NCBI GenBank assembly: GCA_017461745.1
Contig: JAFTXE010000109.1
Coordinates: 30,822 to 94,821 of the forward strand
Reading direction: 5' to 3'
Length of the DNA: 64,000 nucleotides
From: Clostridia bacterium
GTDB taxonomy: Bacteria > Bacillota > Clostridia > Oscillospirales > CAG-272
Both the position numbers and the translations under genes were made by a program. Numbering within the stretch: position 1 is the first letter of the stretch; the number at the start of each line of letters is the position of its first letter. Below the pieces are notes generated by a model. The model searched no databases, was not told the DNA's origin, and saw only the letters and a program-made list of their open reading frames with translations. This document shows, piece after piece, positions 50,289 through 55,763 of the stretch.

Positions 50289-51776
50289 TTATTGCTTATG
50301 ATAAAGCTTTTTGGTAGCGTATACAGGCTCGCTTGTAAGGTCAATGCCAAGCTTTTTATAAATGTTTTTGTCAACGTTTGAAAGCATGACGGTTACGTGT
50401 GCTTGACAACCCTTGAGCTTGGGTAACTGATCCATAGCTAATTCGGCGATAGGGCTTGTTGTCGCTGAAATCGCAAGTGCAATCAATACTTCATCCGAAT
50501 GCAAGCGAGGATTGTTGTTTCCTAAGTTTTCAACCTTGAGCTTCTGTAGTGGCTCCATAAGGACCGCGGGGAGCAAGAGCATAGAATCGTCAATTCCGCC
50601 GAGATATTTAAGTGCGTTCAACAAGGCTGCGGCAGACGCTCCCATTAACTTAGACGTTTTACCTGTAACTATCTTTCCGTCGTTAAGTTCAATTGCCGCG
50701 GCAGGCTCGCCCGTTTCTGCGGCTTTATCCAAAGAAGCCTTTACAACACGTCTAAAGGATGTGTCAACGCCGACTTTGCTCATTATAAGCTCGCTCTTAT
50801 ATATCTCATCAGCATCGGCAGAGCCATTGCGCTTTTGACAAAGAACGTCGTAGTATCTTCTGACTATCTCCATCTTTGAAGCTCGGCAAACCTCTTCATC
50901 GTCTATAATGCAGAAGCCTGCCATATTAACACCCATATCTGTAGGAGATTTATACGTGCATTCTCCGTAGATTTGCTTGAATATAGCTTGAAGAACGGGG
51001 AATATTTCAATGTCTCGATTGTAGTTTACCGCTGTAGTTCCCGTTGCTTCAAGATGGTAGGGGTCTATCATGTTTACGTCGTTAAGGTCAACAGTTGCCG
51101 CCTCATACGCCATGTTAACGGGATGCTTGAGAGGAAGATTCCAAATAGGGAAGGTCTCGAATTTCGCATATCCAGCCTTAATTCCGCGTTTGTGGTCATG
51201 ATATAGCTGAGACAGACACGTTGCCATTTTTCCGCTTCCCGGACCTGGGGCGGTAACTACGACGAGAGGCTTTGTAGTCTGAATATATTCATTTTTGCCG
51301 TATCCCTCGTCACTTACGATTTTTTTGACGTTTGTGGGATATCCTTCTATTGTATAATGACGGTATACCTTGACGCCGAGATTATTCAGACGCTTAATAA
51401 ATGCGTCTGCGGCAGGCTGATTGGAATATTGCGTTATAACAACTCCACCAACGTACATACCCGCCTCAGTAAAGGCGTCAATAAGACGGAGCGTATCCAT
51501 ATCGTAAGTTATACCAAGGTCACCGCGAATTTTGTTTTGCTCAATGGAGGTTGCGGAAACGACTATTATCATTTCAGCATTTTCCTTCATGCTGAGAAGC
51601 ATTCTTATTTTACTGTCAGGGCAGAATCCGGGCAAAACTCTTGCGGCGTGGAAATCATCAAAAAGCTTTCCACCAAACTCAAGATACAGCTTCCCGCCAA
51701 AGCTTGATATTCTCTCAAGGATTTTTTGAGATTGAAGCTCTATATATTTGTTATTATCAAAACCAATACCGTTCAT
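50289..51776 (-). CDS. DUF1846 / UPF0371 family protein
   Basis: 495 aa. The N-terminus GFDNNKYIELQSQKILERI...GGKLYLEFGGKLFDDFHAARVLPGF matches my recollection of the UPF0371 family. The function is unknown. Confidence 0.7.
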   Translation of the reverse strand: MNGIGFDNNKYIELQSQKILERISSFGGKLYLEFGGKLFDDFHAARVLPGFCPDSKIRMLLSMKENAEMIIVVSATSIEQNKIRGDLGITYDMDTLRLIDAFTEAGMYVGGVVITQYSNQPAADAFIKRLNNLGVKVYRHYTIEGYPTNVKKIVSDEGYGKNEYIQTTKPLVVVTAPGPGSGKMATCLSQLYHDHKRGIKAGYAKFETFPIWNLPLKHPVNMAYEAATVDLNDVNMIDPYHLEATGTTAVNYNRDIEIFPVLQAIFKQIYGECTYKSPTDMGVNMAGFCIIDDEEVCRASKMEIVRRYYDVLCQKRNGSADADEIYKSELIMSKVGVDTSFRRVVKASLDKAAETGEPAAAIELNDGKIVTGKTSKLMGASAAALLNALKYLGGIDDSMLLLPAVLMEPLQKLKVENLGNNNPRLHSDEVLIALAISATTSPIAELAMDQLPKLKGCQAHVTVMLSNVDKNIYKKLGIDLTSEPVYATKKLYHKQ

Positions 51777-51986
51777 CAGAAACCTCTCAAAGAAAAAAAT
51801 ACTACTCTTATATTTTAATACATTTTCCGATTTTTTTCAAGTGGTAAATACAAATATTTTTATTATTTAAAATTATTTAAAAAATTCTCCCTAAAATATG
51901 GCTTTTGCTAATGTCAAAAAAAGGATTTCCGCATAAGATGTTAGGGAAGAGCTATTGCTCAAACTATTATTTCAGGAGGAAACGAT

Positions 51987-52820
51987 ATGTCTGAAAACAG
52001 ATTTCCGTGTTCATCGCAGGACAGAGGAAAAAACGAGACTGTCTGCATAGATACAAATCGTGTGTTGGATTCCTGTCGTGACAGAGACTGCTTCGAGGAT
52101 GTGAAGGTTTTGCTTACCAACTTTGGTAACGATATCTTGGAACACACGACGAATATCAGAGCAAAAAGCGCGCATATTGCGTGGACGCAGATTTGTATTG
52201 ACCCCATTAAGTTTAACCGCGGATTTTATTCTGTAAATATCAAATTTTACGTCAAGCTTTGCTTTGAAGCATGCCTTTGCGGTGGCAGAACTCAGGAATT
52301 TGAAGGTATAGCCGTACTTGAAAAGAGAGTTATACTTTACGGAAGCGAAAGCAACGTAAGCATTTTTAAGAGTAGCGGAGACTGCTCCGATTTCTGTTCG
52401 ACTCCCGAGCCTTGCCATAGCAGTAAAAATGTTCCGATGGCTGTTGTAGAAGTTGTTGAGCCAATTATACTTAACGCCAAGGTAAGAGAAGCAGAAGACC
52501 CTTGCTGTTGCTGCTGTTGCTGCTGCGGAGATATTCCAGAGGGAATAGTATGTGGTTTCGGTGACAATCTCAGTGATAGTAACGGAAGATATCTTACGGT
52601 ATCTCTCGGTATATTCTCAGTTGTAAGAATAGTCAGACCTGCGCAGTATATTATTAACGCAACGGAATACTGTGTTCCCGATAAGATATGTATTTCCGCA
52701 GAGGACGATAATCCTTGCGCAGTATTTCGCTCCATGGCATTCCCGACATCAGAGTTTTGTCCCCCCGACTTTACCCCACCTCATAACGATAAGCACGGAA
52801 AGTGCGGTTGCGGTAACTGA
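51987..52820 (+). CDS. Cysteine-rich hypothetical protein with an octa-cysteine run
   Basis: 277 aa with an AGGAGG RBS. By my count 26 residues are Cys, including CCCCCCCC (aa 173-180, nt 52503-52526). The N-terminus carries VCIDTNRVLDSCRDRDC and the C-terminus KCGCGN. A strong terminator follows. Confidence 0.7.
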   Translation: MSENRFPCSSQDRGKNETVCIDTNRVLDSCRDRDCFEDVKVLLTNFGNDILEHTTNIRAKSAHIAWTQICIDPIKFNRGFYSVNIKFYVKLCFEACLCGGRTQEFEGIAVLEKRVILYGSESNVSIFKSSGDCSDFCSTPEPCHSSKNVPMAVVEVVEPIILNAKVREAEDPCCCCCCCCGDIPEGIVCGFGDNLSDSNGRYLTVSLGIFSVVRIVRPAQYIINATEYCVPDKICISAEDDNPCAVFRSMAFPTSEFCPPDFTPPHNDKHGKCGCGN

Positions 52821-52836
52821 AAAACAAATAAATTCT

Positions 52837-52880
52837 TGCGGTAAGGAGTTTTCCTTACCGCATTTTATATTTTTTTATTT
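52837..52880 (+). terminator. Intrinsic terminator of the Cys-rich gene
   Basis: The stem tgcggtaagga / tccttaccgca has a gttt loop. A long T-rich tract (ttttatatttttttattttt) follows. Confidence 0.8.
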
Positions 52881-52886
52881 TTAGTA

Positions 52887-52922
52887 TTGACATTGACGTA
52901 GCGTCAAGTGGTATGATATAAT
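52887..52922 (+). promoter_or_regulatory. MerR-type promoter with a long spacer and an embedded dyad operator
   Basis: TTGACA (52887-52892), 19-nt spacer containing the perfect dyad TTGACG-TAG-CGTCAA (52893-52907), then extended -10 TGgTATGAT (52909-52917). An alternative reading is TTGACG-18-TATAAT (52917-52922). Confidence 0.6.
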
Positions 52923-52938
52923 ATAGAGGGGTGAAAAC

Positions 52939-53634
52939 ATGGATAAAAATCTTCTTTACGATATTTCTGATGTTTGTAGGATGCTTGATACCACTTCCAG
53001 AACTTTACGGTTTTACGAGAAAAAAGGAATAATTAAAAGCACAATTATACCATTTTCAACAAGGCGCAAATATACCAAAGAGCAAATAGATAACATAAAA
53101 AATGTGCTTGTATTGAGAAAATTGGGATTATCGGTAAAAGCAATATCGGAGCTTCAACAAAAAAATACAGATTTGCGAAATGCACTGCTTTTAAAAAGAG
53201 CGGAGATATGGTCGTTAATTGATACTAAGGAAGGTGAAGTTAACCTTATTAATCAGGCAATTGCATTTATAGATGAGAATGAAAATATTTTCGCACAGGA
53301 TTTTAACACTGTTTTTAGAGGTAATGATATAACAAGAGAGGCGATAATAAGAGAGTGTAATCATTCTATTATTACCGGTGATAGTGAAGTATTATATAAA
53401 TTTTTAAGCGAAAAAATGAAAGCATTTATGCCGCCAAACGTCTTTGAAAGCGTCAGAAAAGATACTTTATTGCCTCTTGGAAAATTTATATCTGTTGAAA
53501 ATTTAGAATATGATAAAAAACACGCAAACATTATTTATCAATATATAAAGTATGAAAAGCTTGGACTTAAAGTTAAATATATTTTTTATGGCGATATCAT
53601 TCATGGATTGTGGTTCGAATATTATAAATTATAA
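52939..53634 (+). CDS. MerR-family transcriptional regulator with a ~130-aa C-terminal effector-type domain
   Basis: 231 aa with the N-terminal MerR wHTH YDISDVCRMLDTTSRTLRFYEKKGIIKS...RKYTKEQIDNIKNVLVLRKLGLSVKAISEL. A coiled-coil linker follows, then a C-terminal domain of uncertain family. The coding sequence is AT-rich. Confidence 0.8.
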   Translation: MDKNLLYDISDVCRMLDTTSRTLRFYEKKGIIKSTIIPFSTRRKYTKEQIDNIKNVLVLRKLGLSVKAISELQQKNTDLRNALLLKRAEIWSLIDTKEGEVNLINQAIAFIDENENIFAQDFNTVFRGNDITREAIIRECNHSIITGDSEVLYKFLSEKMKAFMPPNVFESVRKDTLLPLGKFISVENLEYDKKHANIIYQYIKYEKLGLKVKYIFYGDIIHGLWFEYYKL

Positions 53635-53649
53635 GGAGTAATAAACATT

Positions 53650-53964
53650 ATGAAAAAAATATACTTTTCTTTATTGCTACTAATTTCTCTATTTTCGCTT
53701 ACATCTTGTAAAATTAATTGGTTTGGCGCAAGTTACACTGTTCATTGGTTAGTTATTTTTATTCCCGTTTTAGTAATATTGTTGGTTTCTCATATATGGA
53801 TTATTACACGTAAATATAAATGTCCAAAGTGTAATAATTTTTTCAAGCCTCGTTGGTATGAAATTTCAGCATGGCTTCATTACGGAAATAAACGTCTTGT
53901 AAAATGTAAAAAATGCGGATATAAGGGCTTTTGTCCAACAAGAAATAAAGGGGAAAACATATGA
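53650..53964 (+). CDS. Small membrane/lipoprotein with a C-terminal zinc ribbon
   Basis: 104 aa. A lipobox-like signal is present (LLLLISLFSLTSC). A TM helix follows (WLVIFIPVLVILLVSHIWII). The protein ends with CPKC-x22-CKKC. Confidence 0.55.
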   Translation: MKKIYFSLLLLISLFSLTSCKINWFGASYTVHWLVIFIPVLVILLVSHIWIITRKYKCPKCNNFFKPRWYEISAWLHYGNKRLVKCKKCGYKGFCPTRNKGENI

Positions 53965-54413
53965 AGTGGGCTATATATTACATAACGATGATAATATTGA
54001 ATATACTTGCGACAGTAATATTTTTTGAATACATCAATATTACAGCTATATCAATAGTACCAATTTTTATTTTAATACTTATGTTGTTTCAAGCTTTTTT
54101 GTTTTACAATAGTAAAGAAAATGAATTTAACACTACATATTCTGTGCGTTCGGAATTAAACCAAACGGAAGAAAATACTTTGTTCTATTACAATGCTAAT
54201 TCGATGTTAATTTGTGTACCTTTGTTATTGCCGTTTATATTATTTTTCTCAAGTGGGATTAAATTTATTTGTCTTATAATATACTTACTTGGGTATTCAG
54301 GGGCATTAGTTTTTCGCATAAAAAATAAAGACAAGCTAAATAACAGAATACATTCCGAAGAGAACGAATTAAAAATACAACAATCAAAAGAAGAACTTGG
54401 CAAATGGAAATAA
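53961..54413 (+). CDS. Small polytopic membrane protein (about 4 TM)
   Basis: 150 aa. The start overlaps the upstream stop (ATGA), indicating translational coupling. It has four hydrophobic segments and a charged C-terminal tail. Confidence 0.5.
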   Translation: MKWAIYYITMIILNILATVIFFEYINITAISIVPIFILILMLFQAFLFYNSKENEFNTTYSVRSELNQTEENTLFYYNANSMLICVPLLLPFILFFSSGIKFICLIIYLLGYSGALVFRIKNKDKLNNRIHSEENELKIQQSKEELGKWK

Positions 54414-54530
54414 AAGGGCAGTATTAAATATCATAATAAGACATTTGATACGGTTCTTGTAAAACCGCTTGATTTTACTCTCATGGTTTTATGGTTTACT
54501 CGTTGTTTAATGCTAATTATTTGTGATCAA

Positions 54531-54555
54531 TACCTTTGGGTAAAGAACATCCGCT
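54531..54555 (+). repeat. 25-nt direct repeat, copy 1 (tacctttGggtaaagaacatccgct); copy 2 lies at 54769-54793
   Basis: The two copies differ at one position. Each contains the mini-hairpin TACC-TTTS-GGTA. Confidence 0.8.
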
Positions 54556-54583
54556 TTTTTTGAGCGGCTAAGTTATATAATTA

Positions 54584-54612
54584 TTGACAAGAAAATCCAA
54601 ATATGATATAAT
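54584..54612 (+). promoter_or_regulatory. Orphan consensus sigma-A promoter in a 405-bp AT-rich intergenic region
   Basis: TTGACA (54584-54589), 17-nt spacer, extended -10 TGaTATAAT (54604-54612). No annotated gene lies downstream on the + strand before the tkt terminator. Confidence 0.55.
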
Positions 54613-54718
54613 GTAAATATAAAATAAGATTATCGAGGTAGTATGATAGTTGCGAACTTTTTGATACAGATATGAAATTGGTAGCAAAAATAAAGTTTAT
54701 AACAGATATTAGCTCAAA

Positions 54719-54749
54719 TTGACAATCTTTCTAAATTTAATTATATAAT
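54719..54749 (+). promoter_or_regulatory. Second orphan promoter-like element
   Basis: TTGACA (54719-54724), then either a 17-nt spacer to TATATA (54742-54747) or a 19-nt spacer to TATAAT (54744-54749). It sits immediately upstream of the hairpin at 54755-54794. Confidence 0.4.
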
Positions 54750-54754
54750 AAAGT

Positions 54755-54794
54755 AAGCGGATGCTCACTACCTTTCGGTAAAGAACATCCGCTT
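54755..54794. terminator. Hairpin terminator downstream of the transketolase operon (minus strand), and also the 3' end of any + strand orphan transcript
   Basis: AAGCGGATG (54755-54763) pairs with CATCCGCTT (54786-54794), with the inner stem TACC/GGTA. Both flanks are A/T-rich. Confidence 0.6.
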
Positions 54795-54818
54795 ATTATT
54801 TGTTACTATTTTAATGTT

Positions 54819-55763
54819 TTAATGTGACTTGAGAGCCACAGCCGCCTTTGCCTTTGCCACAAGATTTTCTACGGTAAGACCGTACATCTCAAGCAGGGGA
54901 GGGACCTTACCGGAATGACCGAACTTGTCTTCAACACCCATACGAACGACGGGTACGGGGCAACCCTCGCAAACAACCTCTGCAACGGCAGAGCCAAGTC
55001 CGCCTATGATGCTGTGCTCCTCAGCGGTAACGATAGCGCCCGTGTAGCGAGCCGCGTCAAGAATGATATCCTTGTCAATAGGCTTAATGGTTGCAATGTT
55101 TACAACGCGCGCGCTGATACCTTCGTTTGCGAGTATTTTTGCGGCGTCAAGTGCCATGCTGACCATCATACCCGTAGCAACGATGGTAACGTCCTTGCCG
55201 TCGAGCATATTTACACCCTTGCCAATCTCAAAGTTGTAGGTATCTTTATCGTATATAACGGGAACTGCATATCTTCCAAATCTGATGTAAACAGGTCCAA
55301 CGTAGTTAATAGCCGCCTCAACAGCCGCTCTTGCCTCGGTAGCGTCAGCGGGGTTGATAACTACCATACCGGGAATAGCTCTCATAAGAGCGAAATCTTC
55401 AATACACTGGTGAGTAGCGCCATCCTCTCCAACGGTAATACCCGCGTGAGTAGCGCCAATCTTTACGTTGAGGTGAGGGTAGCCGATGCAGTTTCTTACC
55501 TGCTCGTAGGCTCTTCCTGCGGCAAACATAGCGAAGGAAGAAGCAAATACAACCTTTCCCGCCGCCGCAAGTCCTGCCGCAACACTCATCATGTTGCCCT
55601 CGGCAATTCCGCAATCGAAAAATCTCTCGGGGAACTTCTTCTTAAAAATACCCGTCTTGGTAGCAGCCGCAAGGTCTGCGTCAAGAACTACAAAATCATA
55701 CTTATCGCCAAATTCGGCAAGAGCGTTACCGTAGGCTTCTCTTGTTGCAATCTTATCTGCCAT
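54819..55763 (-). CDS. Transketolase, C-terminal (pyrimidine-binding) subunit
   Basis: 314 aa with ATREAYG, FFDCGIAEGNM and GATHQCIED motifs. It is paired with the N-terminal subunit gene 14 nt upstream. Confidence 0.92.
   Translation of the reverse strand: MADKIATREAYGNALAEFGDKYDFVVLDADLAAATKTGIFKKKFPERFFDCGIAEGNMMSVAAGLAAAGKVVFASSFAMFAAGRAYEQVRNCIGYPHLNVKIGATHAGITVGEDGATHQCIEDFALMRAIPGMVVINPADATEARAAVEAAINYVGPVYIRFGRYAVPVIYDKDTYNFEIGKGVNMLDGKDVTIVATGMMVSMALDAAKILANEGISARVVNIATIKPIDKDIILDAARYTGAIVTAEEHSIIGGLGSAVAEVVCEGCPVPVVRMGVEDKFGHSGKVPPLLEMYGLTVENLVAKAKAAVALKSH

Follow-up and report, generated by a model that had tools for sequence, protein, structure and literature searches.

RESULTS

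A three-gene operon behind a MerR-type promoter

We have analysed a small operon of three genes, here called R, Z and M, located in a stretch of 64,000 nucleotides (nt) from the metagenome-assembled genome (MAG) of a Clostridia bacterium (contig JAFTXE010000109.1, positions 30,822 to 94,821). This whole stretch is referred to as the window, and all coordinates are given in it. R (52939-53634, + strand) encodes a regulator of the MerR family of 231 amino acids (aa), a classification based on Pfam, on an AlphaFold2 (AF2) model and on Foldseek. It is followed by Z (53650-53964, +), which encodes a 104-aa predicted lipoprotein or membrane protein, and by M (53961-54413, +), which encodes a 150-aa protein with four transmembrane (TM) helices; both were defined by their open reading frames (ORFs) and by alignment of homologues. 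The genes are co-directional and tightly packed, with a gap of 15 nt between R and Z in the window and an ATGA in which the start of M overlaps the stop of Z. A first-pass annotation, made from the sequence alone, had already described this arrangement, a second gene product with a lipobox-like signal, one TM helix and a CPKC...CKKC motif, and a third one with four TM helices, and all of this is borne out by the ORFs.

The promoter in front of R has its two hexamers separated by 19 nt. The -35 hexamer is the consensus TTGACA (52887-52892, +), the spacer occupies 52893-52911 and the -10 is of the extended type (52909-52917), with TG at 52909-52910, one g and then TATGAT at 52912-52917. Within the spacer and abutting the -35 there is a perfect 6-3-6 dyad, TTGACG-TAG-CGTCAA (52893-52907), that is, the pattern TTGACATTGACG-N3-CGTCAAGTG, which is the predicted binding site of an R dimer and will be called the operator. 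The transcription start site (TSS) is predicted at ~52924, and a Shine-Dalgarno sequence, GAGGGG (52926-52931, +), lies 7 nt before the ATG of R. Promoter and dyad had both been reported in the first-pass annotation, and their letters and coordinates proved correct. The exact dyad is found once in the window when 0.01 copies are expected, and TTGACA-N19-TATRAT twice when 0.05 are expected. We found no further copies of the operator within the window, where sites with two mismatches occur at chance level.

The promoter and its operator are conserved in front of diverged regulators

A protein search for relatives of R revealed 709 matches of 42-58% identity, all of them from uncultured gut or rumen Clostridia, and contigs were retrieved for several of them. 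Furthermore, a scan of the GTDB species genomes identified 184 species with an R relative, from which 80 loci were kept, all in MAGs from roe deer, goat, sheep, yak, reindeer or human gut. The footprint analysis was done with 84 non-redundant loci, representing 73 unique promoter 40-mers.

The element is present 5' of the regulator gene in 84/84 loci. In the 73 sequences, the -35 (positions 1-6, TTGACA) is conserved at 100% in five positions and at 99% in position 5, and the half-sites of the dyad at positions 7-12 (TTGAC[G/C]) and 16-21 (CGTCAA) are conserved at 86-100%, whereas the three central nucleotides vary freely, with 13 different triplets. The TG at positions 23-24 is found in 62/73 sequences, and the -10 at positions 26-31 is TAT[A/G]AT, with T26, A27 and T31 at 100%. 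The 19-bp spacing is fixed, with zero insertions or deletions in the spacer across the 84 loci, and conservation falls off past position 31. The -35, the dyad, the TG, the -10 and their spacing are conserved even though the R proteins of these loci are only 33-100% identical (median 49%), and this constitutes a strong phylogenetic footprint for the 19-bp promoter and for the dyad as its operator. The recognition helix (TTSRTLRFYE) is invariant among the relatives and, because of this, co-variation between helix and operator is uninformative. The earlier proposal that a MerR-type 19-bp promoter with a dyad drives an autoregulated, ligand-inducible operon is strongly supported at the sequence level by this conservation in 84 loci and by a layout equal to that of the characterised tipA, mta and skgA operators (see Discussion).

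A second promoter overlaps the first one (TTGACG, 18 nt, TGaTATAAT, at 52893-52922), and R could alternatively be a plain repressor acting on it. The left arm of the dyad (52893-52898) would then be the -35 and TGaTATAAT (52917-52922) would supply the -10, so that bound R would block RNA polymerase until a ligand releases it. In fact, the dyad does overlap this TTGACG, the promoter scan lists the 18-bp pair with 11/12 matches and an upstream TG, and 18-bp spacers can function in sigma-A-type promoters. However, its -10 decays among the relatives, with a mean of 4.3/6 matches and with A2 and T6 kept in 40/73 promoters, against 73/73 for the 19-bp promoter, whose own TG is also widely kept. A usable second -10 is absent at many loci (such as L029, L055, L084 or L091), the TSS of the 18-bp pair would land in or after the Shine-Dalgarno sequence, and the layout as a whole equals that of the activator-type promoters of the TipA class. 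We consider a plain repressor unlikely, and regard the 19-bp promoter as the one on which R would act.

R carries a putative NTF2-like sensor domain

R is composed of a winged helix-turn-helix (HTH; aa 7-74), a dimerisation helix (aa 79-112) and a C-terminal domain (aa ~126-231). In Pfam (PF13411 / PF00376), MerR_1 was matched with E=1.7e-15 and MerR with E=8.5e-10, both over threshold, and the MerR HTH was matched in 38/38 members of the family. In the AF2 model of R (pLDDT 88.5), the helix spans residues 79-112, and residues 130-229 fold into an alpha+beta domain with four helices and a four-stranded sheet. The first-pass annotation was right about a 231-aa MerR regulator with an extra C-terminal domain, which had been estimated at ~130 aa and measures ~105 aa after the long dimerisation helix. 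Foldseek with full-length R retrieved MtaN, SoxR, BmrR and CueR, the best match being DNA-bound MtaN (TM-score 0.85 on the target), although this is uninformative on the C-terminal domain because the DNA-binding domain dominates the matches.

The C-terminal domain was matched by DUF3887 (PF13026) with E=8.2e-6 and 26.8 bits, below the Pfam cut-off of 31.8 bits, and the same match was found at E<=0.01 in 24/38 relatives of R. A more distant regulator with the same operator (locus L154) scored 40.9 bits, which is above the cut-off. When the profile of the domain was compared with the sequences of the PDB, only weak matches were obtained, but 12/16 of them have the NTF2 fold (best E=0.046); this search did not recover 4HYZ, the structure of DUF3887. 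These data suggest, from a weak match, that the sensor domain of R is NTF2-like, of the DUF3887 type. Its invariant residues are C140, Y153, P165, D175, P179, G181, L210, F216, I221, G223, W225 and Y228. A TipAS-type regulator was also considered for R and rejected, as TipAS (PF07739) gave no match in R at E<=0.1 and the C-terminal domain matches DUF3887 instead.

DUF3887 has been described from 4HYZ as an NTF2-like, putatively non-catalytic domain that binds small molecules and is extracellular. It often precedes hydrolases, alpha/beta hydrolases among them, or is connected to zinc ribbons by a TM segment (PMC3924330). A fusion to MerR is not mentioned in that work, and our literature search found no link of MerR to an NTF2-like or DUF3887 sensor.

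Z, M and H are the variable parts of a modular operon

The signal peptide of Z ends in ...LFSLTSC, with the lipobox LTSC and C20 as its cysteine. Next come an outer segment that is short and aromatic, a single TM helix and, on the cytoplasmic side, a zinc ribbon (CPKC...CKKC). The lipobox, defined as [LVI][ASTVI][GAS]C, was found in 38/42 homologues and the CxxC...CxxC in 42/42, and the outer motif VNWF..YDVPWW is strongly conserved. Pfam and NCBIfam gave only weak zinc-ribbon matches for Z. The protein has no NCBI accession in the protein collection, while R and M are the consecutive entries MBQ8818733 and MBQ8818734, so that the GenBank annotation of the MAG apparently overlooked Z. Stand-alone homologues of Z, 47-58% identical, were also observed in L009-L012, with neither an R gene nor the operator nearby.

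M has conserved prolines and a long C-terminal helix, first basic and then charged, that ends in a conserved LGKWK. Its family comprises 304 cluster representatives; among those listed, all stand alone, none is longer than 194 aa and most have ~150 aa. Neither M nor ten distant relatives of it belong to a Pfam family, and M has none in NCBIfam. The AF2 model of M (pLDDT 74.8) gave no structural match against the PDB in Foldseek, the best E of 2.3 being meaningless. In PADLOC and PHROGs, only the HTH of R was matched, and Z and M were not. A word-index search found few relatives, 4 for Z and 18 for M.

The loci of the R relatives were surveyed for cargo genes by tblastn, and 83 loci were counted. 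Besides Z and M, a third cargo gene, H, was found, and the combinations were RH (24 loci), RZ (16), RZM (15, the type of the window), RM (10), RHZM (8), RHZ (5) and R alone (5). A homologue of Z lies 3' of R in 44/83 loci and one of M in 33/83. The order R-H-Z-M is kept in every locus examined, and the intergenic gaps have medians of 2-8.5 nt. Gut and rumen Clostridia have a modular operon, R-[H]-[Z]-[M], which the window contains in reduced form; Z and M are its accessory parts and H its commonest cargo. Neither an H gene nor a remnant of one was found anywhere in the window.

H, present in the relatives only, is a predicted secreted lipoprotein and a serine hydrolase of the alpha/beta-hydrolase type. 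The lipobox was found in 34/37 sequences and the nucleophile elbow GHS[LM]G (GxSxG) in 37/37, an Asp (D273/D280) and a His (H304) are conserved at >=95%, and Pfam reports matches to Hydrolase_4 and Abhydrolase_1. H comes in two sizes, of ~335 aa and ~445 aa, and the N-terminal domain of the long form aligns over its full length with the sensor domain of R (hhalign P=2.9e-5, probability 74%, 91 columns), suggesting that R in the cytoplasm and H on the outside probably make use of a similar pocket.

Regulators that are 91-100% identical can have different cargo, such as L022 (RH) and L025 (RHZM), at 97% identity, or L048 (RZ) and L049 (RZM), at 100%. Cargo genes are thus gained and lost fast and none of them is required by another, which argues against the toxin/immunity pair that the first-pass annotation had suggested as one possible role for Z and M. 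Further cargoes likewise concern membrane or exported proteins. In L069, the cargo is a DUF1648 membrane protein, and second full copies of the operator-promoter were observed in L058 (7398-7430), before a small ORF with two TM helices, and in L082 (2309-2345), before a 394-aa lipoprotein of no known family, for which an initial guess of an SGNH esterase was dropped as it had no Pfam support. These second copies hint at regulon members beyond the core operon.

The topology of Z leads to another explanation, in which the signal would be sensed at the membrane and not in the cytoplasm. Z and/or M would report the state of the envelope and modulate R by touching its NTF2-like domain directly, in the manner of feedback by a membrane-tethered anti-activator. 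The topology of Z is that of a one-pass transducer, with strong conservation at both ends, NTF2-like DUFs are known to be TM-linked to zinc ribbons (PMC3924330), and more than half of the surveyed loci have Z 3' of R. However, 39/83 loci have no Z adjacent to R (RH, RM and R alone), so Z cannot be required for the function of R. Furthermore, in the published architectures the membrane separates the zinc ribbon from the NTF2 domain. We regard this explanation as improbable, slightly more so than the plain repressor, and retain a ligand-switched R as the more probable regulator of the operon.

The operator precedes the genes of other MerR regulators

We also scanned metagenomes with the exact 21-base operator and obtained 64 sites. 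All the sites with enough downstream sequence (54/54) were linked to genes of the MerR family, 51 of them lying directly upstream. In L142 and L151, a gene for a CPBP/Rce1-like intramembrane protease is located between the operator and the MerR gene, as the first of the operon, and in L163 only a small HTH ORF, identified without a Pfam check, follows the operator.

Several kinds of regulator are found behind this operator, namely R itself, a second MerR-DUF3887 subfamily, TipAS regulators and MerR fusions of ~900 aa, which indicates that the operator is clade-wide. The second MerR-DUF3887 subfamily shares 24-30% identity with R, and behind it lies the gene for an alpha/beta hydrolase with a TM anchor (L112, L135 and L151); L142 is also listed with it, with the protease first and the hydrolase following. 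A true TipAS regulator (PF07739 at 3e-31) with an identical operator is found in L122. The fusions, of ~870-960 aa, were observed behind an identical operator-promoter in L109, L119, L140, L143, L152 and L156, and their Pfam matches are limited to the MerR HTH. In L143, a second MerR gene, with a Cass2/GyrI-like domain, lies directly 3' of the fusion gene.

Base composition and the question of foreign origin

The operon coincides with the G+C minimum of the whole window, the lowest 1.5-kb interval having a G+C of 0.277 against a mean of 0.419 (standard deviation 0.032). Its genes have a G+C of 0.27-0.30 and a G+C at third codon positions (GC3) of 0.22-0.27, while 50 ORFs of >=100 aa, chosen mechanically as gene proxies, have 0.42+-0.05 and 0.42+-0.07, respectively; taken as a whole, the operon has a G+C of 0.29 against 0.42. 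Codon use also differs from that of the neighbours, with TTA making up 35% of Leu codons (4% in the neighbours), ATA 53% of Ile codons (30%) and AAT 71% of Asn codons (35%). The first-pass annotation had pointed to these three codons, had counted about 30% G+C in the first 100 nt of the merR gene (measured here as 0.30) and had named a G+C and codon-use plot as the check to make. According to this check, the deviation is real and extends to synonymous sites.

That annotation had also concluded that the operon was horizontally acquired, and this holds in part. In addition to its deviant composition, the operon is found in 73 different gene neighbourhoods among the 84 loci and its cargo differs between close relatives, so horizontal spread is plausible. 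However, the regulator gene has a lower G+C than its flanks in 67/73 species (mean offset -0.073, Wilcoxon p=3e-12), the offset of the window being the 6th most extreme among the 73, and the G+C of this gene tracks that of the host (r=0.71). A low G+C that is family-wide and follows the host fits either a long stay in these genomes, with a bias peculiar to the family, or several transfers among members of a guild. We found no integrase, transposase or tRNA around the operon and no repeat bracketing it, and no relatives in IMG/VR (viral contigs) or PLSDB (plasmids). All the contigs of the same species that were found carry the operon at the same site, and no empty site was found, since each contig with identical flanking proteins either contains the operon or stops at it. 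Two contigs from one sequencing run, L098 and L102, end at 52931 and 54617 of the window, respectively, just inside the edges of the operon and a few bases past a motif, TATGATATAAT, that both places share; low coverage of AT-rich DNA or strain variation could account for these ends.

The idea of a recent foreign islet in which MerR controls Z and M as a toxin/immunity (or holin-like) pair acting on the membrane would fit the extreme composition, the many neighbourhoods, the cargo differences between nearly identical regulators and the small, hydrophobic and translationally coupled Z and M of the window, but it is very unlikely, since Z and M are not obligate partners (RZ without M in 16 loci, RM without Z in 10, RH in 24, and solo Z without R), no defence or phage family was matched in PADLOC or PHROGs, and the family-wide low G+C, the shared site in all contigs of the species and the searches for mobility genes, flanking repeats, plasmids and viral contigs all speak against it.

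Transcript edges and flanking DNA

Upstream of the operon, a strong hairpin with an 11-bp stem (52837-52862), detected by the terminator scan as a bidirectional terminator-like element, ends the preceding gene. This hairpin is the upstream edge of the AT-rich segment, and the drop in G+C starts there. Downstream of M, a structured U-rich region (54414-54500, +; fold z-score -2.75) is the probable end of the transcript; it includes a weak terminator-like hairpin (54451-54467), which is not a canonical strong terminator. A scan of 51700-55000 against Rfam gave only sub-threshold chance matches.

The protein encoded upstream of the hairpin (51987-52820) has 277 aa and is Cys-rich, with eight cysteines in a run (CCCCCCCC). 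Its gene has a G+C that is normal for the genome, and the protein is conserved at 90% identity in 12 sequences and has no Pfam or NCBIfam family.

On the other side, the AT-rich gap between M and a convergent transketolase gene contains a perfect sigma-70-type promoter (54584-54612), with TTGACA, 17 nt and TATAAT, and also with a TG. It has the 11-mer TATGATATAAT in common with the promoter of R. A transcript of ~180 nt is predicted from it, ending at a bidirectional terminator (54739-54810), with ORFs of 10 and 16 codons only; this transcript had no Rfam match, and nothing similar was found in the other loci. The promoter is located between the two copies of a 36-nt direct repeat (54524-54559 and 54762-54797), which share 89% identity at a distance of 238 nt. 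The terminator hairpin of the transketolase gene has the second copy as its 3' half, and the first copy duplicates this in part. The repeat may be the scar of an insertion or duplication. The second match to the 19-bp promoter pattern in the window, an exact TTGACA-N19-TATAAT at 54719-54749, has no dyad, lies just 5' of the terminator hairpin and is probably due to chance in AT-rich DNA.

DISCUSSION

The explanation that we favour, with a probability of about 65%, is that R-Z-M is an autoregulated MerR-type operon, switched by a ligand through distortion of the promoter spacer, and a reduced form of the R-[H]-[Z]-[M] module. The -35 and the extended -10 of its promoter agree with the consensus but, at 19 bp from each other, they would be too far apart and out of phase for RNA polymerase. 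An R dimer would sit on the dyad that abuts the -35 and, when no ligand is present, the misaligned promoter would be silent. A small molecule, probably hydrophobic, would bind to the pocket of the NTF2-like sensor, and the ligand-bound dimer would kink and under-twist the spacer, realigning the -35 with the -10. Transcription of R-Z-M would follow, with R activating its own synthesis. The hydrophobic nature of the ligand is a guess, based on the NTF2 pocket and on the kinship with TipA and Mta.

Several points weigh against this explanation or limit it. The DUF3887 score of R in the window is under the Pfam threshold, and its C-terminal domain was fold-searched only within full-length R. The centre of the dyad is 2 bp upstream of that of the spacer, and its left arm, TTGACG, resembles a -35, so a repressive component is possible, although MerR proteins repress in the absence of ligand anyway. 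As the operator is common to several MerR subfamilies, other paralogues of the genome might act on the R promoter. Since the searches in PADLOC, PHROGs, Pfam and, for M, Foldseek gave neither a family nor a fold for Z and M, the role assigned to them is a guess, and as the window has no H, a logic of sensing and hydrolysing does not apply to the window as such.

With respect to function, all the known outputs of the module (H, Z and M) are predicted to sit in the cell envelope, and most likely a xenobiotic or antimicrobial compound would induce the operon as a response of the envelope. Our best guess for Z and M is that they protect the envelope or relay its state. The independent recurrence of a membrane-anchored alpha/beta hydrolase behind the distant second MerR-DUF3887 subfamily supports the explanation favoured here.

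A broader proposal, which we put forward tentatively and consider possible rather than probable, is that R-[H]-[Z]-[M] is an undescribed and widespread small-molecule response system of gut and rumen Clostridia in which an NTF2-like pocket would handle a single compound in two places. In the cytoplasm, joined to a TipA-like DNA-binding domain, it would switch the operon on and, outside the cell, joined to the hydrolase of H, it would help to destroy the compound. Z and M would be new membrane components that protect the envelope or relay the signal, and the operator common to TipAS, DUF3887 and ~900-aa fusion regulators would allow cross-talk between the sensors of one cell.

The switch attributed here to R would be that of a textbook MerR protein and, as such, is already known. 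What would be new is a MerR subfamily with an NTF2-like (DUF3887) sensor, which would give a testable role as ligand sensor to a domain that had been described as extracellular, with no function assigned to it, and the union of three uncharacterised families of envelope proteins in one regulon. This regulon is found in at least 184 species of animal-gut Clostridia, with no cultured representatives among the matches. Moreover, the promoter-operator is nearly invariant, base for base, across regulators that are 24-58% identical to R and have different sensors. It could serve as a portable, ready-made reporter for the discovery of inducers, and it leads to the question of whether paralogues cross-regulate. 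With inducers that were diet-derived or antimicrobial, the rumen and gut microbiota would have in this module a new trait for resistance or detoxification. As far as the literature searched shows, the DUF3887 sensor on a MerR scaffold, the H/Z/M regulon and an operator common to several types of sensor have not been described previously.

Within the MerR family, BmrR, EcmrR and CueR are activators that act by DNA distortion (PMC7722741, PMC8113463, PMC9909328). R has in common with them an N-terminal winged HTH, a central dimerisation helix, a C-terminal ligand domain and a 19-bp spacer with a dyad. It differs from them in its effector domain, which is GyrI-like or a metal loop in those proteins and NTF2-like in R, and in the cargo, an efflux pump or a metal transporter, which is not present in the operon of R.

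The long form of H, with its lipobox, an NTF2-like DUF at the N-terminus and an alpha/beta hydrolase after it, shows an architecture already published (PMC3924330). In contrast, published members of the DUF3887 proteins are almost all extracellular (PMC3924330), whereas in R the domain would be cytoplasmic and fused to a DNA-binding domain.

The closest likeness is to the TipA class (TipA, Mta and SkgA) of MerR regulators, which are autoregulated sensors of multiple drugs (PMC7762955). The operator probes published for tipA (TTGCAC-CTCACG-TCA-CGTGAG-GAGGC), mta (TTGACC-CTAACG-TTG-CGTGAT-TGTTT) and skgA (TTGACC-CTCACG-CCA-CGTCAG-ACCTG) (PMC7762955) can be set in the same register as the window (TTGACA-TTGACG-TAG-CGTCAA-GTGGT). 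In all of them a 6-3-6 dyad with an ACG-N3-CGT core abuts the -35 and is followed by 4 nt and the -10, the spacer being of 19 bp, and the regulator gene lies behind its own promoter (PMC7762955), as does R, the first gene of its operon. The kinship with TipA and Mta is also indicated by MtaN being the best structural match of R and by the metagenome TipAS-type genes with an identical operator. In contrast to the TipA class, R has no TipAS domain, and its sensor is the NTF2-like DUF3887 instead. Furthermore, unlike in TipA, Mta and SkgA, envelope genes are located 3' of R in the operon. On the basis of its sequence, R appears to be a DNA-binding module of the TipA/Mta kind that has been provided with a different sensor.

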